The notes beneath the pieces are model-generated. The model was not told the DNA's origin. It saw only the letters and a list, made by a program, of their open reading frames with translations, and did no database searches. DNA of 62,873 bases, counting the filler, from Dirinaria sp. TL-2023a (lineage: Eukaryota): NCBI GenBank assembly GCA_051941275.1. It is 5 parts of 5 records of this genome, joined end to end, with 100 filler letters (N's around TTAATTAATTAA, not from the genome) between each part and the next. Parts side by side here need not be neighbours in the genome. Positions count along the whole stretch, not along the records: positions 37,799 to 50,287 come from JAVEBF010000765.1; 4 more parts are not named here. One strand, 5' to 3'. The position numbers and the translations under genes were made by a program. Position 1 is the first letter of the stretch, and each line of letters starts with the position of its first letter. Shown piece by piece: positions 2,133 to 50,287 of this stretch.

Positions 2133-2727
2133 TTTGAATGTTTGGCCTTTGGAGAGAAGAATTTTGTATTTGTGGAAGATATACGCTCATACAGTACGGG
2201 AAAGACGCATGTTAATCCCAACATGCGCATCTTTAAGAGATCAGGAGAGATGCACTATGATAACACACCTCGGCTTGCCAGAGACAGTAGTTCGAACCCC
2301 TCAAACCAACACGTTGGGCTAACTAACGCACCGCTTTCCATTAGCGTCCGAAATGACATGCAGCCACCTTCGAACGGCTCATGGAGGTGTGCGCGAATTC
2401 AAATACTGCCCTATCGAAATGTGCAACCCAAGGTTGACTTTCCTTATGATAGATGCATTTCTTTGTGGGATATACAACAAGGCTAGCACTTCGAGCAAAA
2501 CGCCTAAAGTAGTCATGTGGCTAAGATTCAAGGCAATACGTGCCTCAGCTACCACATCTTTCGAAACCGCCTTCACAATGTTACATCTTTCTGAAAGCAT
2601 GCAGTTGACTAGCTGGCGAGCGACAGTGTGCTCCTACCCATACGTTTATCAGCAATGCCTCAAGGACGCCTTTATGCTCGTTAGCCCTGTACAATGCCTG
2701 CTACAGATTCCCTTCGTGACGACTACA

Positions 2728-5700
2728 TCATTTTTTCTTTCCCTTCTTTTTGCTTTTGCTTGATGCGTTCGATGCCACACTGGCGGCTCTAGATGTCTGC
2801 ACAGATGTAGACTTGCTCCCATTCTTGACCGCGTCTAATTTTTTATTCTGGCGCACTGTGTCAATACACACGCTGGGAGCATAACGCGGTGCGAACGTAC
2901 CTTGACCCCGTTCTTAGCTTTCTTCTTAGCAGGCGCCACATCCTCCTCCGCCTCTTCATCCTCCTCATCTCTCGGCCGGATCTTGTTGACTCCATTGGCC
3001 ATCTTCGAGTCGCCAGCCTCAAATTCTCGCGCTACTGTTGTCAAGAGGGTCGCACATCGGCGGCCGATCTCGACAGGGGTCCGGCTCAGGAAAAACCAAT
3101 CGAAGCGAAACAAGGGGCTTTCGCGGATCTCATCACGGATCCGCTCGTAGATGCCTTCTCCGTCGATACCATAACGGTCCAGCATAACAAGCAGGAATCG
3201 GTCTTCCTCCTCGGTGTAAACCTTCTTGTTCGTAGTTGACACAGAGTAATTCAGTTTCAGTTGCTGCAATGGTACACGGTACATTTCCATCTTGCGCTGC
3301 AACATTCGTCGTTGATGATTGAGTTTACGCGCCTTCTCCTCGCCAGCTTCGATGGTACCAATGTACTTGGGGAAATCTTGAATCTCTTGGTATTTCACCC
3401 AGAAGGTCTTCGCGTACTCACGAATCTCACGCTCATTCTTGCCATCGACTTCTTCAGCTATTCCACTGTAATTGTGACGACCATACTTCGCGGACCCATT
3501 GATGAACTGTTGAAAGTCTCGTCGATTCCAGTACACGAAGCCTTGCTCCGACATCTTCGCCTTCTGCTCTTGCTCTTCTTCAGTCAATGGCGTTGCGTCG
3601 TCGATTTCCCGCTGTTCAAGCGCACGCTCAGACTCTTTCTCATCCTCGTCCATATCTTCGCGGTCAGGTAGCGGAGCCTTATAATTGATCTCCTTACGAA
3701 ACCACGCGGTTTCTCGCTCCTGCAAATCACGAAGCTGGGGCGGGAAGAACTGGTAGTCATGGATCTGAATCTGTTTGGGGGCACGGGGCGCTTTAGGCTT
3801 TGTATCTGCCGTTCGTCCACCAGTAGAGAGGGCTTGCCTATAGTATTTGTCCATTGAATAAGACTGCTCTTTGCGTTCTCGCTTTGATGGGTTAATCCAA
3901 TTGACCCCGATATCCTTTTTGGCGTTCTTGGTGAAGTCCTCACCATTCCACTCATAGGCATTTTCCGAGGAGAACTTCTGCAGGTCGTCGATACCAAGCT
4001 TCTCATATCGGGCGTTTAACGCCGCTGTTCTCTCCTCCCCGTGTTTGAGGATATCGTCGATATCGTCGTCGGAGAGGTTCGACTTACTTGCAAGCATTCC
4101 TGTAGGGCCCTTTGTATCAAATACTTGCTCCGCCCCATGCTGGATCATGTTAAGCAATTCATCCTTTGATGCAGCTGCCTTAGCAGACTGCTGGGCTCGT
4201 CCTTGCTGTATGACTAATTGATCTAGACGGAGCTTCTGCGCAGCTCGCTCAAGTACCTTTTCCTCGATTGCTTGTTCGGTGACAAATCGAAACACAACAA
4301 CTTGCTTTGTCTGCCCTATTCTATGAGCGCGGTCCATCGCCTGCAGATCGGCCTGTGGATTCCAGTCGCTATCGAAAAGGATGACAATGTCGGCGCTAGT
4401 CAGATTAATACCAAGACCGCCTGCACGGGTTGTCAAAAGGAATAGGAACTTCTCGGAGCCAGGTTTATTATACTCGTCGATTGCAGCAATGCGATCCTCA
4501 TGAGCCGTGGACCCATCGATCCTGCAGTATTTATGTTCACGGAACACGGAGTAGTCTTCTAAGATATCGAGTACACGGCTCATTTGGGAGAAAATGAGGA
4601 CTCTGCTCCCTTGTTTTTTCATTCTAACAAGAATCTTGTCAAGCATAAGCATCTTCCCGGCATTGTAGATCAAATGCTCATCAGTTGTGTAGGGAGGCCC
4701 AGGTTCAGCGCCTTCGAAAAGGTAGGGATGGTTGCAGCATTTCCGGAGTTGCATGACAATGTTCAGGAGCCTGGTCTTCGATTCACGCTTACCGCCAGCT
4801 CCGTTGACCGCATCGATGTCTTTCTCGAGAATTTTCTTATACCACTTGACCTGCATATCGGACATGCCAATGTAAAGATTGACTTCTTTCTTGGGAAGTA
4901 AACTCTTCTCCACATCACTCTTCACTCGCCGTAGAAGAAACGGTCGTAGTACGCGGTGTAGCTGCTGAACGACCGTATCTTGGTCGGCGTCTTGGTTCGA
5001 GAACCATTGATCGAAAGCTTCCGAGTCGCCAAAGACATCGGGCAGTAGGAAGTTTAGCAAAGCCCAAAGTTCATGCAGATTATTCTGTAGAGGTGTTCCG
5101 GTTATGAGCAGCCGATTTCTTGACGAGAAGAGACGGATTATCTGCGCGAGTGAGGATTCTTCATTCTTAATACGGTGGGCCTCGTCGATGATGATATACT
5201 CCCAGGCGAATTTTTTGAGGTGGGTCTTTTCACGAAGGATCATCTCGTAGCTGGTGATGCAGACATCAAAGTTCTCGTCGACCAGTCTATCTTGGATCAG
5301 ATCCTTCCTCTCGTCCTTGGCGCCCTGCAACACCAAGACATCGACCTCTGGAGTCCACATGGAGAATTCGCGCTTCCAGTTGTCAAGTGTAGACTTGGGA
5401 ACAACGATGAGATGAGGACCTTTTGTATCGCAGATGTGTCGAAGGTAGCCTAGAAACGCTATTGTTTGCAAAGTTTTGCCTAAACCCATCTCGTCCGCCA
5501 ATATGCCCGAAATGCCGTTCTCGTGCAAGGATACGAGCCAGTTGAGACCTGCTACTTGATAGTCACGCATTTCGCCATTTTTGACAAAGCCGGGCGACTC
5601 GCGAAAAATGGTATCTGCGTTCCCACCGCGCTTCTCGTCCTTCAAAAGTTCAGCATCCTCTTCCTGCTCAGTGCGTCTTCTCCTTTGCCCAGGGGCACCA

Positions 5701-10964: not shown

Positions 10965-11509
10965 ACTTCCTTAAGAGTGATAGACATATGAGGAAAGAAG
11001 GGACAATCCAAGACAGGAAAGCGGAGCTAACAGAAAATGATATAAGGCCCAAAACGACTCTTCGACGAACTCTTTTCTGGAGTCTTGACGTTTATACTTC
11101 AATTGCTCGTTTTTCCATCTACAGTACAGGAAAAAAATACTTTGTGGGCTTCTGCAAATAGGCTATATCTAACCTCGGCTTTTCAATCCCTGGGAAATAC
11201 TAATACGAAGCTGCAAGCCGTACGTAATGAGTAATCGATACATATAATACAAAGGCACCTCGGAAGGAGATTGAAGGCCCCGGTGGCGCAGGTCAAGATA
11301 CAAACGTCCAAGGCGAAGGTCAGAACTATTTTTACGATCTTTACATGTTTCCGAGCATTCCTTAGCCGGAGATATTCAATTTACCCGTCTTATAAGAAGG
11401 TGGAGGCTCATGTCTGTCCCACAGCCAAGAGTCCACGGTTCTAACTCTATACAGTCGCAAATACAGTGTGTTTTTTCAATTGGCTGAAGGCTCGATACCT
11501 GTCTCTGAA

Positions 11510-12505
11510 CTAGGTTGAAACCGTATGCTTTCCACGGCGTAAAACCCATGAACATGAATTGGAAAATATTCTGCACTTCACACTGAGTTGTTCCAGCCAT
11601 CCGGGCGATTGCGGCGTCGCGAGCGACAAGACGATTGCAATCACGAGCCCACCCAATGTCTTGATCTTTGCAGTGAGCGAATTTTTAAAGCAAGCACCAC
11701 CGACCCGAGCGGCCAAGAAGTATGACCTTTGCCAGAGCGCTACGACTCTTGCCCGCTTACGCCGGAAAGACTTTGCATGAGCGCGGAAGATGGCTGGAAA
11801 TGACAAAGCTGCACCGCAAATAATACCGATGTTGATCTCAAGGACGCTACTTGGATTCAGCGTCAGAGCCTAGGAACCTTCGATAGGACTGCAAACCTCA
11901 GGGTCGCGGCCGAGCCCATGACCCAGAATACATCTAGGCTATTAGCGTTACGAGAGCACACCACAAGGCGACCGAAGCTCACGCCGCATGCGCTAGCGGA
12001 TAGAATGTTAACAGACGGCAAGATATGGATCATGAGCGCTCACATAAAGCCTGTTGAAAATAAGGCGATAATAGCCAGCCTTTTAGAGACAGAAATTTGA
12101 AGTTTAATGACCAAAGTGATAGGTAAAGCGATGACCAGCAAATCCATAGCCACGCTAAGAGCACTTTGAGCGATGACCACATTTGAGATGGTGTTGCAGA
12201 GGTGACCCTGCAGTGATTTAATAGACACGCAAAGAGAGTGCGCTGAGCAAGCCGCGGCAAAGTCAATCAAGAAAAAGAGAGTCTGAGACACCAGAACGAA
12301 CATGACCAAATATCTGTACCTTCGCGAGGGGCCAAAGACTCGAAAGTGTAAAAGGACTAGCGATAATCGCACAAAAAATGCGGTGGGCCCGTAGACCAAA
12401 TTTAGGGCGTCCAGATCCTAGCAGTCGTTAAAGATGTCTTCTTTCGCGAAGCAAGGTTGAGCTGAGGGCTCACATGTGCAGCTTTCGGGGTAAAGTTATC
12501 GGCGC
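11510..12505 (-). CDS. PTH11-like / fungal rhodopsin-domain integral membrane protein, 5'-truncated at contig end
   Basis: YGPTAFFVRLSLVLLHFRVF, SVAMDLLVIALPITLVIKLQISVSKRLAIIALFSTGF and EINIGIICG...FPAIF are characteristic TM motifs of this family; several short introns. Confidence 0.8.
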
Positions 12506-12605
12506 NNNNNNNNNNNNNNNNNNNNNNNNNNNNNNNNNNNNNNNNNNNNTTAATTAATTAANNNNNNNNNNNNNNNNNNNNNNNNNNNNNNNNNNNNNNN
12601 NNNNN
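12506..12605. other. Artificial contig linker (N44-TTAATTAATTAA-N44)
   Basis: 100 bp, palindromic 12-mer with stops in all six frames flanked by N runs. Confidence 0.99.
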
Positions 12606-37798: not shown

Positions 37799-38071
37799 CT
37801 TACTAAGCAAATTAATAAGCAAATTAGTAAGCAAGTTCGTAAGCATTAGCTTAGTAATACTTCTTTTAACACTGTGTTGTTCGTTTTTTATGTATTATCG
37901 CTGGAACGTTCACAAACTTATAAGCTTACTAATAAAATTAGAAATCAAATCATAAAATTGATTTTAAATTCTGAAAATCATAATCGATTTTGAATATAAG
38001 AAATCAGAAATTGATTTTGCAAATTTTCGAAAATCGATTTTAAAATTGATTTCTGAATATTCGTTACTATA
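37799..38071. repeat. AT-rich mutated repeat/transposon-end relic
   Basis: Very AT-rich, almost no CC/GG; 12-bp tandem TAAGCAAATTAR at 37805-37850; recurring AAATCGATTTT/AAATTGATTTT motifs; abrupt return to normal composition at about 38072. Confidence 0.5.
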
Positions 38072-39633
38072 GAGAAGAGATCTCTAGAATACTAGCTAGG
38101 GGATTTGCCATCTACATAGCCACGAAAAAGACTGCGCGCATGCTGTGGGATAGTTGTGAATCACTTTTTAACGGCTTCAAGATTTACAAAACTGCTGTAG
38201 CGATGCGTTATTCGTGAGGATACTGATGGAGAGTAGTTGACAAGTAATTCCATGAGTGTGTTTATCATAACAAGGAACTATGGGTACAACCAGAATCATG
38301 ACGTCTAAATAGGGTACGCCTGAATCTGACGAGCAGTGGTCCCCTTTTGGAGAGCTTTATCAAGGATGGCCTCATAGTATGAGGTCCCAGCTATTTTGGC
38401 CGATGAGCACAGTAAGTTCCGAGGTTCAATGGTGTGATGCAAGATATCGCATAGGGTCCAGAGGTATCTTTCGAGCACGGCAGACGTGAACAAATCCGAA
38501 AAGCGTTTCCAAAGCCTACGAGAAACGGAGTCACTTATTTGTTGATTTGTTCTCCGTGCCAGGCCGCTAAGATCAATGCTTCCTGACACTCGTGCTTTGG
38601 CATATATACGTTCTTATCTTTATAATAAAGTTGAGTTCTGTACTTGTTTAGATGAGAAACATCCAGCGAAACTTCCCACCATTGACTCTCGACGAGGTAT
38701 ATCTTGCTATTCTCATGCCCAGTCGAGATGAAGTTTGGGATTCCGCTGAATAAGTCAGTTTTATTGTTTTCTACCAAAGATGAGTATTGACATATTGGAA
38801 TGAGTTCTGAGACGAGACATTGGTGAATGGTGTTGAACATTCGCACAACATTACCTTGAATACTGTTAGACTTTCCCCGTAACATGAATTGAGGTCATCA
38901 ATTCATTCAAGACTCTCTATGCCTATACCTACATTATGCGTCAAGACGTATACCCACATATTTTACTGGCAGTCCGAGCGATGCAGTGGTCTTCTAGTCC
39001 ACTTGGGTACCTCCAGTATGCTTTGTATAGCTGTGCTGACACTTATTTCAAGCGCATTGCGACGAGTACCACTGCGACAACGGAGCGCGGACCTGCATAA
39101 CTGCTTGGCCTATTAGGCAATAATACCACAGTGCTGACAATGTATGTTGGCCACCTTTCATACACCGAGACACCATACCGAGGGAGGGACTCGAGACGTC
39201 GCTTGTTTCAAGTGATCATGGGGGCGCTTCCTTTGTCCAGCTTGTCCTCAAACAGCTAGTCCGGCCCCCAATATCACACTAAGCCCGATCGAGCGGAGTT
39301 CTGGCCACGCAGGCGGTTGGAAGGTCGGTTTCCTGTTATGCGACACGTACCCAGTTCCACATTCTTGCTCTCTTTTAAGCGTTTCTGAAGTCACTCCGTT
39401 TCTCCCGCAGAGTGTTGTAAGTACTCACTTGAAGTGATCGACGCAGTGGTGAACAAAGCGGTGTACGGGCCATGCACTTTTCCAGTTCGGGGAGCAAACA
39501 TTCACATTTTCTTACCATGCACAATCACACCTTGCATTCCGTCGATCCGTTGCCATGACACAATTTTACTCAAATTTCATTCCCAGCCGGTTCGAGCTTC
39601 CTGGTAAGACCAAGGCAAAGCGTTTCCGCTCCA

Positions 39634-42471
39634 ATGGCTGGCTTTTCAATTCCACTTCCTTTTCTGGATGAGGCAGCAAAGCTACAGCTCAAAGAGTCTT
39701 CCAACCATCTACGTACCGTCTCCGCTGAGCCAATCCATGCTGTGAAGGTCAAATTGCATGCTCGCGGCTCTCAATCTCTTGACTTGGCCAACCCAAAGCA
39801 GAAGAAGATTATCGATCAGTATGACACATGGACAGCTGCTCGAGCAGCATTGTCGGCCAAGAAGCGGAAGCAATTAAAGCACCAGTCCAGCCAGTCTGTC
39901 GAGTCAGTCTCTTGCGCCAGACACCTGTGTAGCAAATGCCAGACCTTCCCTTTGCAAAGCTGCCTCACTTCACCTGAACCTGGGCGCATCTGGACGTCGC
40001 CTCTTAAACGACTGATTTGGCACCAGAATGATTGTCCACTTTGCAGTTTACTGACTCGCTCACTATGCCAGCCACAGAACGATCCTTTGATGCATCCTAC
40101 TGTGTCAGTGAACCTACCCGAAAACCTGCGGAAGGACACCATGCAGACATGGCTCACCGCTCTGCTATTAGATGACGTTTGGCTTAATACTAAAGTCTCA
40201 TGGGGCCATCTTCAAAGGTGGCCATTTGCTGTTCAGGAAACTGAGGCCGAAAAGGAAAGTGCCGAGACTGATCCCACCGACATGCCTAGAATTTCATCGG
40301 GTAGTCTCAGTCAAGGCTTCGTAGCAACGACAATCGACAAGGGTGACAAGTCCACCGATACAAAGTCAAGGCTAATTCAAGCAACGTCTCCGTGTTATGT
40401 AGCGATCTCAAACAATTCAACAGCCCCGGGGCTGCTTGACGTCAAACTTTGGGGCTACCCGCGAGGAAAGAGGACTCAGATTATGGCACTGAGCAGCTTT
40501 AGACTTCGAATAGAATCAGAGTGGCCAATTTTCCAGTCTGCACGAGAAAATACGCCCTTGTCTTACGGTCACATCCTCGATTCGGATCATATAGATCTGA
40601 GTCTCGGACGAATGTGGCTCGACCACTGCGAGCAATCCCACGGCGTGTCTTGTAGCAAACAAGGATGGCCTTTCAAACTAGGCAGACCCGACTTTTTCCG
40701 GCTTATTGATGTCGATGATCTATCTGTGGTTGAGGTGACTGGATCTCAAGCGTGGAGCTACAGATATGTGGCTTTGAGCTACGTTCGCGGCCATGCAGAG
40801 ATTTACAAGCTCTTACGTAACAACAAGAACCGGCTAGTTAGAACTCATGGGCTTTTCAAAGTATTTCGCCATAATCTGTCGAAGACTGTTCGAGATGCAA
40901 TCTCAGCGACACGAGCATTTGGGGAACGATACCTATGGATTGACTCACTTTGCATCGTCCATGACGATGAAGTTGAAAAGCGGCAGCAACTGGACGTCAT
41001 GGATCGAATCTATGGCAACGCAGTCCTGACATTGGTCGTGGCTGATGCAGAACATGCTGGCGTCGGCATTAGCGGCGTTGAGGAAGGCTCCCGTGAAATT
41101 CAGCAGATCTGTGAGGAGATAGAGCCTGGTATCCGTATGATGCTTCCACTTCCAGAGACAAGGAGCTTGGCCTTAACACCTTGGAATAATCGCGCATGGA
41201 CATTTCAAGAACGGTTGATGTCACGCCGCTTGGCTATCTTCACCAACGGCCAGCTAGTATGGCGCTGCCACAGGACCGTGGCGTTCGAAGACATGACTGC
41301 AGCTGAGCGCGCCGAAGAGGCCGAGGATTTTCCATTACTATCAATGGTGCCTCAAATGACAGGGATCAAAAGTCCAGGAGAAAGCTACATAAATTGTAGT
41401 CTGATAAAGCTCGACAGCGGCAAGACCCAAGTGGTACGATCTGCAGCTTTCAAGGAATATGCTTCCTTAGTAACGCAATATACACGACGGCGGTTGCATT
41501 ATCCTTCCGATGTGCTTGATGCCTTTGCCGGACTTTCCCATGTCATGGAGCTCTGCTTCAAGTGCGCCATTAACAAAGGACTACCAGAGAATCTTCTCGA
41601 CACGGCAATTCTGTGGCGTCCAGTAGAGCGGTTGCGCAGGCGTGCCGCTGATAGTACACCAAGCTGGTCTTGGGCCGGCTGGGAAGGTTCAGTAAAGTAT
41701 GAGGATGCCTTTCGAATGTATAAGGATGACTGGACTCTCAAGCGTATCCCAAGCCACGACGGTACCGAGCCTTTTCGCCCTCTGCTTCGGTGGTTCGTGC
41801 CGAAGAATGGAGGCCTCCAATTGATCAACGGTAATGGTCTAGGTGTGCCTTTACAGACAGAGACAGAGAATCTTCCCAAGGAATGGGACAAACATCCCCC
41901 TTTCTTGTCTCCAAGAGGAAGTGAAGACGAAGACAACCTTGGATACTGGAATTATATAATGGACGACATCGAGAATATGCTTCTCGATTCCAGCAAAGTA
42001 GCAGAGATTCGCGCTCATGTCGAGGTATCAGATTTGCCCGAAACACTCATACCAAAACTCAGTGACCGGAATCTGATCTTTCGCACAAGCTGCACAGAGG
42101 CGTTGTCATTTGGGCGTATCAAACGATCCGCGGTTGTTGACCCTAAGATTCCACTTCAGTATCCGATTCTCCAACTAGCGAATACCAGGGCAGAGAGACA
42201 AGTAGGACACTTACGTCTCGATGGTGACGGACCACGGCTGTTCGATCCCGGAAGGCACTCACTGATCGTTATATCCGAGGCCCTATACTTCAATATCAGC
42301 CAAAATGATCAACAAGACGATCGCGAGGACTTTCCCCTATACAATGTCATGCTCATAGAGTGGAAAGAGGGCGGACCTTTAGCCGAGCGTCTGGGACTCG
42401 GACGTGTGTACAAACATGCCTGGAAGACTTTTGAGCCACCGCCGGTCGCAAAGGTTGTAGTGCTAGGATGA
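39634..42471 (+). CDS. HET-domain (heterokaryon incompatibility, PF06985-type) protein
   Basis: 945-aa single-exon ORF; CxxC pairs (LCSKC, CPLC), WLDHCEQSH..C, FRLIDV, YVALSYVRG, YLWIDSLCIVHDD, MDRIYGNA, WNNRAWTFQERLMSRR, YTRRRL...DVLDAFAG, PSWSWAGW, ERLGLG. Confidence 0.93.
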   Translation: MAGFSIPLPFLDEAAKLQLKESSNHLRTVSAEPIHAVKVKLHARGSQSLDLANPKQKKIIDQYDTWTAARAALSAKKRKQLKHQSSQSVESVSCARHLCSKCQTFPLQSCLTSPEPGRIWTSPLKRLIWHQNDCPLCSLLTRSLCQPQNDPLMHPTVSVNLPENLRKDTMQTWLTALLLDDVWLNTKVSWGHLQRWPFAVQETEAEKESAETDPTDMPRISSGSLSQGFVATTIDKGDKSTDTKSRLIQATSPCYVAISNNSTAPGLLDVKLWGYPRGKRTQIMALSSFRLRIESEWPIFQSARENTPLSYGHILDSDHIDLSLGRMWLDHCEQSHGVSCSKQGWPFKLGRPDFFRLIDVDDLSVVEVTGSQAWSYRYVALSYVRGHAEIYKLLRNNKNRLVRTHGLFKVFRHNLSKTVRDAISATRAFGERYLWIDSLCIVHDDEVEKRQQLDVMDRIYGNAVLTLVVADAEHAGVGISGVEEGSREIQQICEEIEPGIRMMLPLPETRSLALTPWNNRAWTFQERLMSRRLAIFTNGQLVWRCHRTVAFEDMTAAERAEEAEDFPLLSMVPQMTGIKSPGESYINCSLIKLDSGKTQVVRSAAFKEYASLVTQYTRRRLHYPSDVLDAFAGLSHVMELCFKCAINKGLPENLLDTAILWRPVERLRRRAADSTPSWSWAGWEGSVKYEDAFRMYKDDWTLKRIPSHDGTEPFRPLLRWFVPKNGGLQLINGNGLGVPLQTETENLPKEWDKHPPFLSPRGSEDEDNLGYWNYIMDDIENMLLDSSKVAEIRAHVEVSDLPETLIPKLSDRNLIFRTSCTEALSFGRIKRSAVVDPKIPLQYPILQLANTRAERQVGHLRLDGDGPRLFDPGRHSLIVISEALYFNISQNDQQDDREDFPLYNVMLIEWKEGGPLAERLGLGRVYKHAWKTFEPPPVAKVVVLG

Positions 42472-43402
42472 AGGCCATATTACTACATACCGCCGAAGAG
42501 AAGCCTGCAATCATTGCCACCACTTCCACCAACAAAGGATAGGTTGCCGATCGGAATAATTGCTATTGGACTGAAAATGCTGAGTCTCGCCACACAAAGT
42601 CTAATTTTGTTGACGCAGACCTGTATCGCCGCCCAGGGTCCAAGTCCATCGTGACTCCTCCAAATACCTCAACCATTCAGCCTCCTACCATCACCGCATG
42701 GGTTCCTGATTATTCTCGGCAATTGCCAGATCTCCCTCCGAATCGTCGGGGAGGCTACTTCCACCTACCTGATCATCCAAAACGGACTGTACGTATTTTG
42801 CACAAGGACGATGATCTGATCTCGAACAAAGAGCCTTTTTCATCATCATTCGCAGCCCTTTGCTGCGAGACGCACATTCTACAACATAGGTTATATTCAA
42901 AGCCTTTCGATGACACGTTTTCTCATTCAAGGGCATCGAACATATTATGTGGATTTATACTACTGTTATTTTCCATGTGAATTTCATGTTGTCAAATATA
43001 CTATCTAAGAACCTGTTATACAGGTCGCAGAGCCTTACTTTTATGCTCGGAGACTTTGAAAGGACCGGGTGGTAATGGAAGCCCATCTAGCACGCCGTCG
43101 CTACCACACGAGTATCAAGCGTTCGAGGCGGGTTACGGCACATTGGACGTTATCTCCAACCACGATGAGAGTGATATTGGACTCTTCCTCAACGACATCG
43201 ACGTTCCTATCTCATATGTGCTCATGCATTGCGAAGGCATGACTCATTGAATGGCCGATCCGTTGGGAATTGGCGCAAGCCTGCGCTAACTCACATCATT
43301 GATTTCTTCTCAAACGGAAAATTTTTCTTCTCAGTATTGCTCATATGACCTCAACAAATCCGGTAGGGGGGTCCTCGACCCAGTCTTTCACTCTCCTAAT
43401 AA

Positions 43403-43411
43403 ATATATAAG
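43403..43411 (+). promoter_or_regulatory. Candidate TATA box for the 43610 gene
   Basis: atatataag followed by a pyrimidine-rich tract, about 200 bp upstream of the ATG in good context (accATGG). Confidence 0.4.
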
Positions 43412-43609
43412 GCCGGTTCCTCTCCCCTCTTTCTCATGACACCAGAACTCATTAGATCACTGCTTGCTTTTCTCTCGCCTGTAAAATATATCGCACACAG
43501 TGACCATTAGTAGACTACTCCATAAAATATAATCTTTGCTACCCTCTTTATCAATATCACTGCTCCTCTGTACGCCCTCATCCATACATTCTTCTGCCTC
43601 CATCAATAC

Positions 43610-45845
43610 CATGGCCCAAGCCTTGACCACAATGTCCGTAGAGTACGAAAACTCGAGCTTTGAATCCGAGGTGGTCCTGTCTTTCGACCTTGCAGCCAGT
43701 CCCAGTGAGAATACGAGCATGCTGCAGGGCTTCCAAGAAGAATTTGCTGAAGATCCTGTCGCAGCCAGCGACGAGTCTTTCATGCTCGACAATCTGGAGG
43801 AATCGGAGGATCACAGCGGTGCCGAGTCATTCGAAGAAGACACTTTAGATGAGTCTGCGGGATACGGGGAGAGTGAGTCATGGACAACTTGGAGCAACGA
43901 AGAAGTTCCCACAAACTGCGCGGCAGATGGATGGGATGCCGCTTGCGGTGAGGTGGATGTACCGCTCCCAACGCCAGAGCGAATCTTTCCTTCTTGGAGC
44001 TCCCCTCTCCCTACCTCACCTGAGCCCTTACAGATCGATAGCGTCACAATCGATGGGCATCCATTCCTGACTGCCTTTTTCGAGCAAACGCGGGCCATGG
44101 ACATCCCCTTTGCAACCTCTCACCGTCTAGCGAGTTTCCTAATGCATCTGGTAGAGGAATGCTGCTTCGACTTTGTCCAACGCGTCTATCCGGACGAGCT
44201 ACCGGACGTTGGCTTTGAGGCTAATCCAGACCGCTTGGAGAGGCTACCAGTCACATCAGGAGACCAGATTGAGGTCCAGCAGTGGGCGATGCCAGTTTCC
44301 AGATGTCTCAGGCGCTTGCAATTTGAAGCGGGGTCCAACGATAATACCACATGCAATGTACGGGATCTTACGCCTATCAGGCTACTCGGGGTACACAGCT
44401 GGGCTGTATACAACACAAGGTACATCAAGCAAGTGGTCGGCTTGGTAGCGCTGCTCAAAGACGAATGCCGGCTGAGCAAGATCGAGCGAGTCTTGCAAGT
44501 GCTCTACCAGCGGCAGCAACCTCCCAGCGAAACCGCGCCAGTGATCAGTGCCGAGGACAATCGCGCGGTCGACATAGCTCTGGGCCTTGTACCGTCTCCC
44601 GCCACGACAACAAATCAGCTCCTCTGCCGGGTACAGGACATCGTGGAGAAGTCCTGCTTCGACTTCTGGTCCGCCAGACAACCGGAGTGGCTGCTCGAAC
44701 GGGGGTGGTCGGGTAACGCATGGGTAGGTAGTTCGCCAAGTACCGTTGATGGAACGGGCTGGGATTGTCCCGAAAGGGTGGAGTTGAACGTGTGGACGAA
44801 CATGGGCTGGCACTTTCCGGAGTTCTCAAGCACGAAGGATCCTTTGGCCCGGGAGCGTAAGAGGTACTATCCAGCCAGGTGGTATCTCTTCGATCTTTTG
44901 CGCAGTATGCGACGCCTGCGCAACAATGCAGCTCACAAGGGTATTGGACTCCGCGAGCAAGATATCGGAGGCCTCGAGAAGCTACTCACCGATGCCTCGG
45001 AGCTGGCCACGCTGCTTGGCGATCCGGTCGCGACAGCCCAGATCCGGGCCCTTGTTGCTCAAGCCGCGCCCGTCACTCAGCTTATTCTTGCGAGGGAGGC
45101 TGCCGAAAGAGAACTCGAGAGACGGTGGAACGAGGAATGGCAAATCCTAGGTTCGATAGAGGTTTGGGATTATACCGACCTCCTGGACCATTGCCATGGG
45201 TTTTGCCTCCACGTTTTCCCCGCAGCGGTAGCCGATGAAGAACGCACTGGACGATGGAACAAGGAATGCCAAAGTTTACTCTCGATAGAGCTTTGGAATT
45301 ATACCGACCTCCTGGACCATTGTTACGGGTTTTGCCTTCACGTTTTCCCCGCAGTGGAAGCTGATGAAGAACGGATCAGACGATGGAACAACGAATGCCA
45401 AAGTTTACTCTCGATAGATCTTTGGGATTACACGGACCTCTTGGACCATTGTAATGGGTTCGTCCTGCGTTTTCTGGGAGAGATGGTTCAACCACCTCCG
45501 CCTTGGGAGATCTTCTGGTGGGAATGGCAAAGCCTAGCTTCGATGAGGCTTTGGGACTACACAGATTTGCTGGACCATTGCGATGAGTACATCCTTGATT
45601 TCCTGTTGGTGCCACCATCTCCGGAGTTCTTCCACTGGAGATGGTACGCTTCGCTCGATGAGAAGCGCTGGTACGGGGATGATTGCTGTTCCCAATACCC
45701 CCCCTTGGACGTCGATAGTTGCCTGCCTCATTATCCCCCATTCACCCCCGAAGAGCTGCAGATGCCGTCGCTAACCTTCATGCCAATATGGCGCGACAAT
45801 CGGACCACCGGAGCCGCATTGATCAACCCTATCGGCAGCATCTGA
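43610..45845 (+). CDS. Uncharacterised protein: acidic N-terminus, two duplicated helical domains each with R-x4-H (HEPN-like), four C-terminal 43-aa repeats
   Basis: Uninterrupted ORF, first ATG at 43610. Internal duplication LVEECCFDF...DQIEVQQW...IRLLGVH...LVALLKD vs IVEKSCFDF...ERVELNVW...LRNNAAH...LATLLGD; W[DN]YTDLLDHC x4. Confidence 0.8.
45123..45610 (+). repeat. Intragenic coding tandem repeat, 129-bp (43-aa) unit x about 4
   Basis: Units start at 45123, 45252, 45381 and about 45513; core tgg[ga]attatac[cga]ga[ct][ct]t[cg][ct]tggaccattg. Confidence 0.92.
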
Positions 45846-45962
45846 AAGGTTCCTAAACATCTCCCAGCGAACTCGGCAGCGACCTCGATCCACAGCATCT
45901 GAAAGCCTCCTAAACATCTCCCAGCGAACTCGGCAGCGACACCGGTCCAAAGCATCTGAAAG
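45837..45962 (+). repeat. 57-bp tandem repeat x2.2 spanning the stop codon
   Basis: agcatctgaaag at 45837, 45894 and 45951; cctaaacatctcccagcgaactcggcagcgac twice. Confidence 0.92.
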
Positions 45963-46346
45963 CGCTATTCTTCCGTAGATCCATACACCCACGACGGCTA
46001 TGACCACGAAACCCCACATCCTCTCGACGAATTCGACGCCTCTATATATTGTCTGAAGCTCCCAGCGTATCGCAGCTGAAAGTACGACAGCGAATTGAGC
46101 ACCCAAAAAGGTCTCTCCACCCACTTCCCAACACCATTACGCCGCCCTCCAGCCAATTTTGGCCGAGATGTCCAATCATGACTCGGACGCATCCACTCCT
46201 GCCGCGCAGCCTCCACTTTCTCACCCCATCTAAAGCCTTCTTAGCTCAAGCATCTCATAACCGATGCCGCTATCCCTCCGAATAATCGGAAAATAGCTCC
46301 ACATCGAACATCACCCCAAAGAATCACTCGTCGCAAAAAGCAGTCA

Positions 46347-48348
46347 ATGACTGAACCACCTCAATCTCTCCAAAAAACCCCGCGAGAAAAAATATTGCAG
46401 AAATCTAAATCCGCTCTTCGAAATCACGCAAACATCTCAACTGTCGTACGAAAACGACATCATCGCTTTCAACACAACGAAGAATTCAAAACTCGATCGA
46501 GTGCGCGAGTAAATAAAGTATGTGTGCCTCGCAAAAATCGATATCGATCGATCGATAAAAGCCCCACATTCTCAATCCGTCCTCGATCTCCCTCTCATAC
46601 ATACAAACACAAAACCCACCGAGACCACCAACAATAAACCCATTCCTGATCTAGGAGAAGAAACAATATCGGCAAAAACGCTGAACCTCTCTAAACTTAG
46701 CTAAACATCGATCAAAAATTATCAACACTTCGTCTCATCATGCAGCATGCATGACTGAATCACCTCAATCTCTCCAAAAAAACCCCCGCGAGAAAATCTA
46801 TCGCAGAAATCTAAATCTGCTCTTCGATATCACGCAGATATTTAGATCGTCGTATTAGAACGACGAAAAATCCAGAATCGGATCGAATGCGCGCAAGACA
46901 CCACCAAGAATATGTGCCTCGCAAATCCTCACATCGATCGATTGCTAAGAAGCTTCACATCCTCAACCCATCCTCACTCTCTCTCATACAAAACCCAAAA
47001 TCCCAAAAACACCAACGATAAGTCAATTCTGAGTCAAGAGAAGAAAGATCATCAAAAACCCACCAAATCTCTCAATCTCAGCTAAAACCCACCAAAAATC
47101 ACCAAAACTCCACCTCATCATGGAGCATGCATGACTGAACCACCTCAACCTCTTCTCAAGACCATCAAAAAACATCACAGAAATCTAAATCCTCTCTTCG
47201 AAGTCCCACAAAACCTTGTACCGCCGTACCGAAACGACATCACCGCTTTCAACACAACGAAAAATTCAAAATCCGATTGAATGCACACAAGTCACCAGGA
47301 ATGTGTGCCTCGCAAGTCCCACATCCTCAACCCATCCTCCCTCACCCCATACAAACCCAAAATTCCAAACACACCAACGATAAACCCATTCCTCTCCTCA
47401 ACCAAGAGAAGAAATCCACATCGATCGATCGATAAGAAGCTCCACATCCTCAACCCATCCTCCCTCGCTTTCATACAAACCTAAAAATCCCAAAAACACC
47501 AAGCATAAACCACTTCTCAGTTTAGAGAAGAAATTCACATCGATCAATAAGAAGTCCCACATCCTGAACCCATCCTCTCTCTCCCCATACAAACCCAAAA
47601 GTCCAAACACACCAACGATAAACCCATTTCTCAATTAAGGGAAGAAATCTACATCGATCGATAAGAAGCTTCACATCCTCAATTCATCCTCCCTTCCTCT
47701 CTCCCCCAAACATACAAAACAAAAAAATCACCGAAACCATCAAGCATACCTCATTCCTCAACTACGAGAAGAAAGACCACCAAAAAAAACCCCGACCCTC
47801 TTCAAACTCAGCTACAATCAGCAAAATCATCAACACTCCACCTCATCACGCAGAAGCTGCATCTACATACATACATACCCATAAAGCGCCACAAACATCA
47901 ACATTTGCCTTACACCTCGTCACTGCTACCGCTGTTCTTCCTCTTCTTCTACGAACGAATATAACGATTGAACAAGACGCTGTTCATTGCGTCGAATCTG
48001 CGTCGAAATCCGCTTATATATCTTCAGCCTCCCTCTCTCTCTCCTCACACACAAATCTAAAACCATCAGAACCACCAACAATAAAACCATTCCTCAATCA
48101 AGAAAAGAAAGACCACCAAAAAAAACCCCGACCCTTCTCAAACTCAGCTACAATCAGCAAAACCACCAAAACTTCGTCTCATGATGCAGAAGCTGCATCT
48201 ACATACATATCGATAAAGCGTCACAAACATCGACATTCGTCTCACATCTCGTCATCGTTATCATCATTTCTCTCTCTTCTCTCCGTCTACGAACGAATAC
48301 AACGATTGAACAAGACGCTATTCATTGCGTCGAATCTGCGCCGAGATC
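46347..48348 (+). repeat. Nested degenerate tandem-repeat array (about 380-400-bp, 120-bp and 340-bp periods)
   Basis: atgactgaa[ct]cacctcaa at 46347, 46751, 47131; cacatcct[cg]aa[ct][ct]catcc sub-unit at about 46956, 47320, 47443, 47559, 47673; ctacgaacgaata...gcgtcgaatctgcg block at about 47949 and 48287. Strongly C/A-skewed. Confidence 0.88.
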
Positions 48349-50287
48349 TGTTAGGCTCCTAGACCCTGGGGCCGGCTTGGCGGCCCCATTAGTCATCAGG
48401 TAGTACTTAGGGGACGATTGTCCCATCAAATGGACATCATCTTCCTTCCAGATCATGATTTCTCAATAGCTGGTAGCATCAACAAGGCGACGATGTTCAT
48501 CGGCCCGCACATCAACCACCATTATCAGCTCTGTTTTTGCTAGTTCTTTGATTTGATTAGCTTGATAGGCCGTGTAAACGTCCTATTTCTTCAGACCGTG
48601 CAAACGATTCAGTTCGATCGCTCTGCCCGACCGACAAACCTTCGCTTCTTAACCACCCACTCTACACTGCCTCGAGGGCTGTTCAAGCTGACGTCACCGC
48701 CGGATCTATCAAGAGAGATAGTTCAAAAGGCTCATCAGATCAACGATTTCATAAACGCCACCGGCACAATCATTTCTATCGAAGACGCTCGGATTTTCAT
48801 CTACAGCATCGTGTCAACGACGTTGCGGTCACTCATATCGAGAAATCAGACTATTAGAAATACGCAGAGATCACAATCTCAGAAGTCTGTCAATTACTCT
48901 CAGAACTGAGTCATCGATAAGTCAGTCTTTACGAGAGCGATGAAAGACTTTTTGATCGCTACTTTCGCGTACAGATCTACGAACTTTTATTGCTTCTTTC
49001 TTTCGAAAGAATCAACCTCTCAGTCTCAGAATCTCAGCAGTTCATCATCAACAGAGAAAACTTCAAGTTTCGAAGAATCGATTTCTTCAGCATCTTCTAC
49101 ATATCGATTTCGAGATACAGAGAACGTCGATCTCACTTTATCATCTCGACGTATCTCTAGATCATTCACTTCTACATCTAGTGATCGTCATATCAAATCG
49201 TCAACCTCAAGAAATCAAAGAGCTAAGTCTGCGACGACATCGATCATCTCTGCGAAAGAGACAATATACAACGAGTCTATTGAATCTGCTCTCAATCTCT
49301 ATCAGTTTTCTTTCGTTATCTCGACGAATAGTATGACTGATCTTACGAAGACTCAGCAACGTACGATTGCTGAAGTAGTGAGACAAGTACTAGCAGCTCA
49401 GCAATCATCTCGAGAACCTCAAGATCTCTCAGAGTCACAAGAATCTCCGAAATCGTCGACAGAAGATAATTATGAGCAATCAAGATGAAATTCAGCTGAG
49501 ATTGACTTTTTTAATCTCTCACACGATGACAAGTTTCTGATCAGTGACGCCGACGTCATGAAATACGTCAATAAAGAGACAGTAATTCGAGACGTTCATC
49601 TGTTTATACAACGTGCAAACGATATTGCAACGAGTAAGAATGCGAAATTAATGCGTGACAATCTTTATATCTGTCTTAGAGACGAGACTCTGAACTGATG
49701 AGAGATCGAGCTTTCAGATATCGAAAGACGAATGACAAAACTCATCTTCGATGAGATCGATCTCATAAACGAATGATTCAGACTACTGTTAAAACGTTTC
49801 GCTCAGAGATCTAGAATAGCGACAAACGTTATGCTGAAGAAAAGATATACTCTTCGAGATGCGATCAATCGTCGCGAGTCTAGACAATATGCACAAAAGA
49901 TTCTAAGATCAGCAAAGAACGTCGAAATGATCATTTTACAAACGCAGTTAAACATTATCTACAATGAGATTGACTCTAGTTTGATCAAAGAGAATCTGAA
50001 GACGCTCAAGACAGAAAATATCACACTAGAGAATTTTTTAGAACAGCTGAATGATTGCAAAAACAACTGATGAGATTATGTCACTAAAATGCTCAACAGA
50101 GATCAAAAATTCAATCGTATTTCACAATTTCAGCGTCTCTTTCAGCAATCTCGCTTTTCAGACAATAATAAAGCTAATTATCAGCAGCGATTTCAACTCA
50201 ATGACTTTTTCAGTCGCGATTATCAAAATATGAATCGCGTTTATTTCAATCGCTCGTATTATTCTTCGACCAATCGTTCATACTACG
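48349..50287 (+). mobile_element. LTR retrotransposon relic (Ty3/Gypsy-like): putative 5' LTR plus mutated gag, truncated at contig end
   Basis: Begins TGTTAGG exactly where the tandem unit is interrupted. One reading frame (about 48553-50287) is broken only by TGA at Trp-like positions (48907, 49486, 49696, 49699, 49774, 50068, 50071). Gag-like motifs R*NSAEIDFF, RDVHLFIQR, DNLYICLR, LN**. Confidence 0.8.

Follow-up and report, generated by a model that had tools for sequence, protein, structure and literature searches.

What would a fungus use a gene for that encodes two R-x4-H motifs, the signature of HEPN ribonucleases (RNases), on one polypeptide? The question is raised by a stretch of DNA from Dirinaria sp. 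TL-2023a (GenBank assembly GCA_051941275.1), which we refer to as the window: 62,873 nucleotides, filler included, made of five joined parts of five records, of which positions 37,799 to 50,287 come from JAVEBF010000765.1. The gene in question lies on the plus strand at 43611..45845, stop codon included, and encodes a protein of 744 amino acids (aa), here called P0001. As read, it is a single, uninterrupted exon that starts with an ATG in an ACCATGG context. An earlier, sequence-only reading had set the gene at 43610..45845; its open reading frame (ORF) and end are retained, and its start is moved to the ATG at 43611, position 43610 being out of frame. The same reading had proposed a self-contained two-HEPN RNase effector with a role in immunity or as a toxin, fused to a variable repeat module serving as sensor or autoinhibitor.

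Here, we describe P0001 as an internally duplicated protein with homology to HEPN families, whose R-x4-H motifs are conserved among its relatives and whose gene is linked to a HET gene. It is very probably a tandem HEPN-superfamily protein. The explanation that we favour, and regard as probable overall, is that P0001 is a HEPN dyad of an unannotated Ascomycota family, which works as an intramolecular pseudo-dimer RNase, is paired with HET and has a role in biological conflict. Of its parts, an active RNase seems to us slightly favoured, and a functional coupling to the HET protein within a conflict system is put forward more tentatively, as a possibility.

HEPN RNases are central to prokaryotic and animal antiviral defence (Cas13, Csm6, Abi proteins, RNase L), and in Cas13, two HEPN domains in one chain jointly form the RNase site. 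HEPN domains with an intact R-x4-6-H motif are metal-independent endoribonucleases (endoRNases); both R and H are needed in RNase L, PrrC and RloC, and a polar residue (mostly N, D or H) directly follows the R (PMC3710099). The HEPN active site is composite, and dimerization is required (10.64898/2026.09.30.754977).

A duplicated domain with HEPN homology

The central part of P0001 consists of two related domains. Domain 1 (aa 141-308; 44031..44534, plus strand; bounds by hmmsearch) is HEPN-like and the diverged duplicate of domain 2 (aa 314-487; 44550..45071, plus strand), a Swt1-like HEPN domain. In the structure models, domain 1 has a predicted local distance difference test score (pLDDT) mostly above 90. 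Each domain carries one motif: RLLGVH (R257/H262, aa 257-262; 44379..44396, plus strand) at the end of helix 254-261, and RNNAAH (R437/N438/H442, aa 437-442; 44919..44936, plus strand) at the C-terminal end of helix 422-442, ahead of the loop to helix 454-468. A CFDF sequence also recurs, at aa 185 and aa 349. The two halves match each other by BLASTP (E 1e-6) over 55 aa, at the first helix, and family profiles of aa 140-312 and aa 313-490 align with an hhalign probability of 99.2% (E 3.1e-19, 135 columns), with R-x4-H placed on R-x4-H. Judged by these alignments, the internal duplication is firm and beyond chance, and the duplicated helical domain is found where the earlier reading had located it, with the motif in both copies.

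The motif pair by itself is a different matter. From the composition of P0001, 0.96 R-x4-H motifs are expected, and at least two occur in 25% of 20,000 shuffles. Two such motifs in one sequence are not beyond chance (P=0.25), and the weight therefore rests on conservation within the family. An exhaustive HMMER search of 1.84 billion representative proteins returned 70 homologues at E<=1e-3, 29 at E<=1e-10 and 11 at E<=1e-30, each representing a cluster at 50% identity. Word-indexed searches returned only P0002, P0003 and P0071. The closest relative, P0002, is 52% identical to P0001, and family members are mutually only about 20-55% identical. With hidden Markov models made from the family itself, the order domain 1-domain 2 is found in 55 of the 70 representatives; eight (249-486 aa) have domain 2 alone, and seven, mostly of 100-330 aa, have domain 1 alone and are probably fragments. 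One of the proteins with the second domain only (P0068, 486 aa) has an N-terminal, near-threshold match to the BAH domain (E 7e-7), scoring 29.6 bits where 30.8 would be needed, which hints at a chromatin-linked variant of the family.

In an alignment of the 70 rows, R and H are kept in both motifs at these low identities. Among non-gap rows, motif 1 has its R in 61 of 64 and its H in 53 of 64, with a K at the H position in four rows, and motif 2 has its R in 62 of 62 and its H in 60 of 62. The conservation that the sequence-only reading had named as a check thus holds among the homologues. The residue after the R of motif 2 is N in 48 and H in 12 of the 62 rows, and N438 of P0001 agrees with the polar residue expected of HEPN; in most rows, the motif takes the canonical form R-N-x-x-A-H-R. 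After the R of motif 1, the family has a polar residue in 50 of 64 rows (H 27, Q 12, N 11). A conserved acidic residue stands in the long helix ahead of the insert in each domain (E182 in 47 rows, E346 in 55 rows). P0001 lacks the fuller E-x3-[KR] form.

P0001 has no Pfam, NCBIfam or PADLOC match. The gathering cut-off of PF18731 (HEPN_Swt1), 27.5 bits, is missed even by the best-scoring relatives (P0058 and P0070, 13.5-13.6 bits), and P0001 has no match to it. Sequence searches of the PDB gave a best E of 1.1 with P0001 and of 0.33 with the 70-sequence profile. No PIN domain is found in P0001 or among the 25 most frequent Pfam families of the 70 members. Below threshold (E<=0.1), the 69 relatives have 27 Pfam matches, seven of which are to Abi_2, HEPN_Swt1, HEPN_RiboL-PSP or DUF4145. 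All seven overlie an R-x4-H, in P0067 that of motif 1. DUF4145 and RiboL-PSP-HEPN are members of the HEPN clan; PMC3710099 counts Abi2 and Swt1 among the HEPN families.

For direct comparison, reference sets were drawn from bacterial genes above the Pfam cut-offs. PF18731 occurs in 33 of 301 genomes and gave 30 loci. PF07751 (Abi_2) occurs in 40 of 301 genomes. Three of its loci were dropped, two because the ORF was broken or lacked the motif and one because no ORF was picked, which left 28 usable ORFs. Domain 2 aligns with the 30 HEPN_Swt1 segments at 95.3% (E 2.4e-8, 115 columns, positions 6-143 of 145), and its R-N-x-x-A-H falls on the template's R-N-r-W-A-H; a reversed HEPN_Swt1 control gives 0.3% (P 0.2, 20 columns). 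With the 28 Abi_2 proteins, domain 2 aligns at 43.6% (E 2.4e-4, 28 columns, in the motif helix), the reversed control giving 0.1% (P 0.59, 14 columns). For scale, Abi_2 and HEPN_Swt1, both accepted HEPN families, align with each other at 13.9% (P 0.002, 23 columns). That both halves are of the HEPN type, as had been claimed, is upheld by the profile match of domain 2 and, for domain 1, through domain 2. In the ESM Atlas, the nearest clusters to aa 320-500 are unnamed Ascomycota proteins (0.93), and a cluster with 20% HEPN_Swt1 members, at a score of only 0.83, is merely a lead. On the strength of these profiles, P0001 is assigned to an unannotated Ascomycota family within the Abi2/Swt1 clade of HEPN.

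The structure models are in line with this assignment. An AlphaFold model of aa 125-500, made with the 70-row alignment, has a pLDDT of 88.9 and a predicted template modelling score (pTM) of 0.90, which shows only that the relative placement of both domains is confident. By DSSP, domain 2 consists of helix 334-356, an insert, helix 422-442 ending in R437..H442, a loop and helix 454-468, and domain 1 of helix 167-192, an insert, helix 254-261 (with H262 next to it) and helix 270-281. The modelled motif at the end of helix 3, the acidic residue and the insert agree with the description of HEPN in PMC3710099, and as modelled, both domains have the HEPN helix topology. Among the 50 matches listed by VIA-align for the model against about 48,000 representative chains are several HEPN entries: Cas13 (6vrc, Z 6.6, root-mean-square deviation 3.8, 100 residues aligned over a range that spans both halves), Swt1 (4pqz, Z 6.4, 128 of 136 residues aligned), Csm6 (4rgp, Z 6.2; 6tug, Z 5.4), AbiF (8vz6, Z 5.9, 141 aligned) and Cas13bt3 (7vti, Z 5.5). 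When VIA-align was applied to Foldseek's own candidates, Csm6 came out on top (6tug_D, Z 6.4, 111 aligned, 1.2 above the next). We consider the fold searches weakly informative. Of the checks proposed earlier, the AlphaFold topology of both halves and the profile match of domain 2 point to HEPN, and Foldseek gave no PDB match at E<=0.001.

Linkage to a HET gene

Directly upstream of the HEPN gene, on the same strand and 1.1 kb away, lies a HET-domain gene (39634..42471, plus strand), a 945-aa ORF with its HET domain at aa 378-526 (Pfam PF06985, E 1.4e-27). HET domains are TIR-like cell-death domains. The region ahead of the domain (aa 1-377, 39634-40767) has no Pfam match at E<=0.001 and contains paired-cysteine motifs, CSKC and CPLC, which are conserved in the orthologue from locus L004.

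Is this adjacency a property of the one genome? A first metagenome scan returned no relative, and a later scan of metagenome contigs returned five loci (L001-L005). These amount to two independent groups, L003/L004/L005 with about 96% DNA identity and L001/L002 with 99.4%. Both L004 and L005 contain a 950-aa HET orthologue that is 64% identical to that of the window over 944 aa. Behind it stands a tandem pair of family members (514 aa and 558-570 aa), each sharing 32-34% identity with P0001 and 40% with the other. The tandem copies (L004:9674-13389, L005:9674-13352, L003:1293-5005) both keep two R-x4-H motifs. L002 has a single, intact family member (3984-5657) downstream of a HET relic (2435-3458), whose match is limited to aa 456-804, spread over three frames and broken by a stop. 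In L001 and L003, the contig ends too near the gene to show upstream DNA. A HET gene or relic is therefore upstream in three of the three independent loci with upstream DNA (the window, the L004/L005 group and the L002 group), and their flanks are unrelated: the window has a GARS gene there, L004 a TRI-like acyltransferase and L002 an AMP-binding enzyme. No other ORF of at least 80 aa is shared between the window and the loci at E<1e-5. The HET/HEPN pair stays together while its surroundings change, and this setting beside a cell-death gene fits the conflict or immune role that had been proposed from the sequence.

Within the pair, the two genes diverge at different rates. The HEPN gene is far more diverged than its HET neighbour (32-34% against 64% identity). 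When L004 is compared with L005, purifying selection is seen on each of the three genes, with ratios of nonsynonymous to synonymous divergence (dN/dS) of 0.41, 0.44 and 0.30, and synonymous divergence (dS) is 0.167 in the second HEPN copy versus 0.028 in HET. A sliding window reveals a divergence island of ~1.5 kb (L004, about 11050-12600), where identity is 87-95% against 98-99% in the surroundings; it begins near the end of the first HEPN copy, crosses the spacer and takes in the initial two thirds of the second copy. Two haplotypes are seen, L004 versus L005 and L003, in metagenome contigs and not in a population sample. Long-lived alleles under balancing selection could have produced the island, as could gene conversion from a paralogue. 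A complex prediction of HET aa 527-945 with the HEPN core scored 0.00; made without controls, this score has no bearing on binding.

Terminal regions, repeats and surroundings

Outside its two domains, P0001 is variable. The N-terminal region (aa 1-114; 43611..43952, plus strand) is acidic, rich in Ser, Glu and Asp, weakly conserved in the homologue alignments and predicted to be disordered (pLDDT <50 in the full-length model). W108, near its end, is invariant in the ten closest homologues, the N-terminal tryptophans of P0001-P0011 sit among G, D, E and S residues, and the N-terminus of P0003 contains several W-[TD]-D-Q-P-S-D-like units. Such disordered N-termini with tryptophans may be akin to short acidic-aromatic binding motifs. 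Two 7-aa insertions relative to P0002 and P0003 were considered as unspliced introns and ruled out, 21 nt being too short.

The four 43-aa repeats that the sequence-only reading had seen are all located, at aa 500-542, 543-585, 586-628 and 629-671 (45108..45623, plus strand), with W[DN]YTDLLDHC cores at aa 519, 562, 605 and 648, a spacing of exactly 43 aa. Tandem Repeats Finder picks up a period of 129 bp at 45120-45460 (2.6 copies, 85% matches). The units resemble one another only moderately (16-30 of 43 aa, 48-81% of bases) and are modelled as helical, with the pLDDT dropping from about 87 to <40. Among the 70 representatives, only P0001 has four units; P0002 has one and P0003 none that is clear, and no other match of the exhaustive HMMER search has its best stretch past aa 535. 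This distribution points to a lineage-specific expansion of the C-terminal tail. Fungal NLR-type ANK, TPR or WD arrays consist of near-identical units with few hypervariable positions and are joined to a NACHT or NB-ARC ATPase. The repeats of P0001 are unlike these near-identical receptor repeats because their units share only 16-30 of 43 aa, and a Pfam scan of P0001 found no repeat family and no NTPase domain. The idea of a variable repeat sensor or autoinhibitor is not sustained, given the confinement of the repeats to P0001 (with one copy in P0002), their low pLDDT and their difference from receptor repeats.

Two other readings of the repeats were dropped. Zinc binding was set aside by eye, only the H-C pair being invariant across the four units, and an amyloid signaling motif was set aside on account of the acidic and aromatic units, which are unlike motifs of that kind. 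The invariant core W-[DN]-Y-T-D-L-L-D (45165-45590) holds a Y-x-x-L with acidic flanks; this fits the general pattern of Atg8-family-interacting motifs, and we note it as a lead only. Beyond the repeats, the C-terminal tail (aa 672-744; 45624..45842, plus strand) is rich in Trp, Pro and Cys and modelled as coil with no confident structure (pLDDT 28-35), and its start resembles, by eye, a degenerate fifth repeat. A 57-bp tandem repeat (45836-45963, 2.2 copies, 91% matches) runs from the last codons of the gene into the 3′ flank. Just downstream, the strands are strongly asymmetric (GC skew -0.46 and AT skew +0.28 at 46001-48000), and over 46001-50000, the G+C content falls to 0.42-0.44, with a plus strand rich in C and A.

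Elsewhere, the gene content of the window is fungal, with matches to an ISWI-type SNF2 ATPase, an adaptor mu subunit, a P450, G-alpha, SPX and GARS. No second copy of the family was found in the window by tblastn.

Mechanism, alternatives and known systems

How might such a protein work? In the mechanism that we propose, each domain would set its R-x4-H at the end of its helix 3, and the two domains, joined by a short linker and packed as a rigid unit, would form an intramolecular pseudo-dimer in which the motifs are juxtaposed. The pseudo-dimer would create one composite, metal-independent endoRNase site, as other HEPN proteins do by dimerizing and Cas13 does in one chain. Regulation might come from the disordered N-terminus, from the C-terminal tail or from the HET protein. 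The HEPN gene and the upstream gene for a TIR-like HET cell-death protein would make up a persistent two-gene module, whose most likely role would be non-self recognition or antiviral defense in hyphae, where RNA cleavage would do the damage or arrest growth. A motif-intact dyad family of ~70 clusters, absent from Pfam and found beside HET, is a candidate effector or recognition partner for fungal biology. As a compact, single-chain HEPN pair of about 370 aa from a eukaryote, it may also help in comparing the construction and control of composite HEPN sites.

A bolder version, which we hold to be improbable, is that HET and the dyad HEPN protein constitute an undescribed two-component system of fungal immunity or allorecognition. 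Activation of HET, possibly via a nucleotide signal, might switch on RNA degradation; nucleotide signaling in bacterial TIR and CARF-HEPN systems offers an analogy. Alternatively, the fast-evolving RNase might be the polymorphic partner, with a mismatch leading to HET-dependent cell death. Under either arrangement, the amplified C-terminal repeats might tune the HET-HEPN interaction in the lineage of P0001. If true, this system would add RNA cleavage to the effectors of fungal regulated cell death.

A number of observations weigh against the pseudo-dimer RNase, several of them concerning its HEPN identity. None of the 70 family members reaches any Pfam gathering score, and Foldseek finds no match in the PDB at E<=0.001 (best E 0.43). 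The best VIA-align score (Z 7.2) belongs to helical domains of acyl-CoA dehydrogenases, which rank no lower than the HEPN entries, and every Z is below the tool's safe level for helical bundles. Domain 1 alone matches HEPN_Swt1 at only 7.0% (P 0.005, 49 columns, motif in register) and Abi_2 at 0.3% (P 0.23, 16 columns), and as far as profiles can tell, it is tied to HEPN mainly via domain 2 (99.2%). The lack of a Pfam match above threshold and of a Foldseek match, together with Z-scores within the range of unrelated helical proteins and the chance of two R-x4-H in 25% of shuffles, would suit two generic helical bundles that keep R-x4-H for a structural or ligand-binding reason. We find this very hard to believe, since PF18731 is matched over its full length at 95.3% with the motifs in register (reversed control 0.3%), the sub-threshold matches to four HEPN families are all over the motif, and motif position, acidic residue and insert agree with the HEPN description (PMC3710099). 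Other points concern catalysis. Table 1 of PMC3710099 lists the HEPN dyad of Swt1 as inactive, which the paper puts down to a missing conserved motif. P0001 has a Leu (L258) after the R of motif 1 in place of the polar residue typical of active HEPN sites, and all seven HET-linked ORFs from the loci have Leu there as well; domain 1 may thus add less to any catalysis. With domain 1 further from HEPN than domain 2, and with HET proteins known to recognize an adjacent, non-enzymatic partner (PMC10890737), the dyad might instead be a catalytically silent RNA- or ligand-binding module that serves as sensor, scaffold or recognized target, for example as a polymorphic partner of the HET protein, as Bp is for Bh in het-B. 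This seems unlikely to us: R and H of both motifs are kept at about 20-55% identity, for which binding alone is a poor explanation, most rows show motif 2 in its canonical form R-N-x-x-A-H-R, and the motif whose loss is said to make Swt1 inactive (PMC3710099) is kept in the fungal family.

The conflict role, in turn, depends on what the HET neighbour means. HET genes number about 117 per genome in Sordariales (PMC10890737), one HET adjacency means little, and only three independent loci are at hand, each belonging to the family's closest clade. L002 has an intact HEPN gene beside a HET relic, and HET is therefore not strictly needed for keeping it. P0001 might then be an ordinary enzyme of RNA processing or turnover that has no conflict role and whose adjacency to HET, among the most abundant genes of fungi (PMC10890737), is chance or plain synteny; the purifying selection (dN/dS 0.30-0.44) would be expected of such an enzyme too. 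Against this stand the 32-34% identity of the syntenic HEPN copies versus 64% for HET, the tandem duplication in L003, L004 and L005, the unrelated flanks outside the pair, the 1.5-kb island at 87-95% identity over one copy in contigs otherwise at 98-99%, and the lineage-specific repeats of the tail. Only 70 clusters at 50% identity in 1.84 billion representatives are also unlike a conserved housekeeping gene. We consider an ordinary enzyme a poor candidate, and the HEPN dyad RNase paired with HET remains the explanation that we prefer.

How much of this is new? The earlier statement that the architecture had not been described does not stand, as a HEPN dyad is listed for eukaryotic Swt1 (PMC3710099) and Cas13 also carries a pair of HEPN domains. 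In kind, single-chain HEPN pairs are already known, and so are defensive, Swt1-like HEPN proteins in eukaryotes; what appears to be new here is the motif-intact fungal dyad family and its pairing with HET. In the literature searched, which leaves most subscription journals and supplements outside, we found no stand-alone fungal HEPN dyad with both motifs intact, and in the literature on HEPN, fungi, incompatibility, NLRs and mycoviruses, no link between HEPN and HET and no HEPN partner of HET. Of two reviews on immunity and cell death in fungi, PMC10197012 has 0 occurrences of HEPN, RNase, ribonuclease or Swt1, and PMC12881547 has 0 of HEPN by search count; the main text of the fungal NLR survey PMC9815663 is, by search count, likewise without HEPN. 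The additional files of PMC3710099 or PMC9815663 might still include the family.

Among known systems, Swt1 is the nearest in sequence. Domain 2 covers the whole of PF18731 at 95.3%, 128 of 136 residues of the yeast Swt1 structure 4pqz are aligned, and Swt1 is likewise listed as a HEPN dyad. The fungal family differs in having no PIN domain, whereas Swt1 orthologues have an N-terminal PIN endonuclease; it keeps both R-x4-H motifs, whereas the Swt1 dyad is described as having lost the motif; and it is patchy, fast-evolving and adjoins HET. In the sampled bacterial phylum, HEPN_Swt1 is found in open frames of about 245-375 aa and about 850-1200 aa (L117-L146), two size classes that fit the described fusions to large ATPases (PMC3710099). 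Daphnia (46 copies), dictyostelids and Naegleria have HEPN proteins of the Swt1 family that bear the motif and are described as probable defensive endoRNases (PMC3710099). Like the fungal family, they are eukaryotic, bear the motif, are nearer to the bacterial versions, are expanded into paralogues and are predicted to act in defense. Fungi are not named there in the excerpt, the dyad is fused here, and the comparison is by description only.

Cas13 shares two HEPN domains in one chain and appears in the fold comparison (6vrc, Z 6.6; 7vti, Z 5.5). P0001 differs in having no guide-RNA lobe, with only the disordered N-terminus and the repeat tail outside the dyad, and no CRISPR context, being the product of a eukaryotic 744-aa gene, and no Cas13 model is among the eight PADLOC families with matches. 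The resemblance may indicate a possible working mode, not family membership. In the homodimeric HEPN RNases of defense systems (Csm6/Csx1, AbiF, RnlA and the RNase L/Ire1 KEN domains), two chains contribute to the site, and ligand-binding domains (CARF, kinase-like, ankyrin) act as the switch; the fold matches include Csm6 and AbiF. In P0001, unlike in these proteins, no sensor domain was detected.

For the pairing with HET, the nearest parallels are two-gene incompatibility loci, of which further examples exist in Neurospora and Cryphonectria. In het-B of Podospora, the HET protein Bh (HET/lectin) acts with Bp, the PII-like product of the adjacent gene (PMC10890737), and the vic2 and vic6 loci of Cryphonectria are mentioned in PMC11138114. 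Incompatibility genes make up no more than a small part of the many HET genes (PMC10890737). As at loci of the het-B type, the HET gene is tightly linked, in three of three loci, to a fast-diverging partner of another family, and a narrow island of high divergence lies over this partner in related contigs. The arrangement within the HET protein differs, with the HET domain central here (aa 378-526) and N-terminal in Bh.

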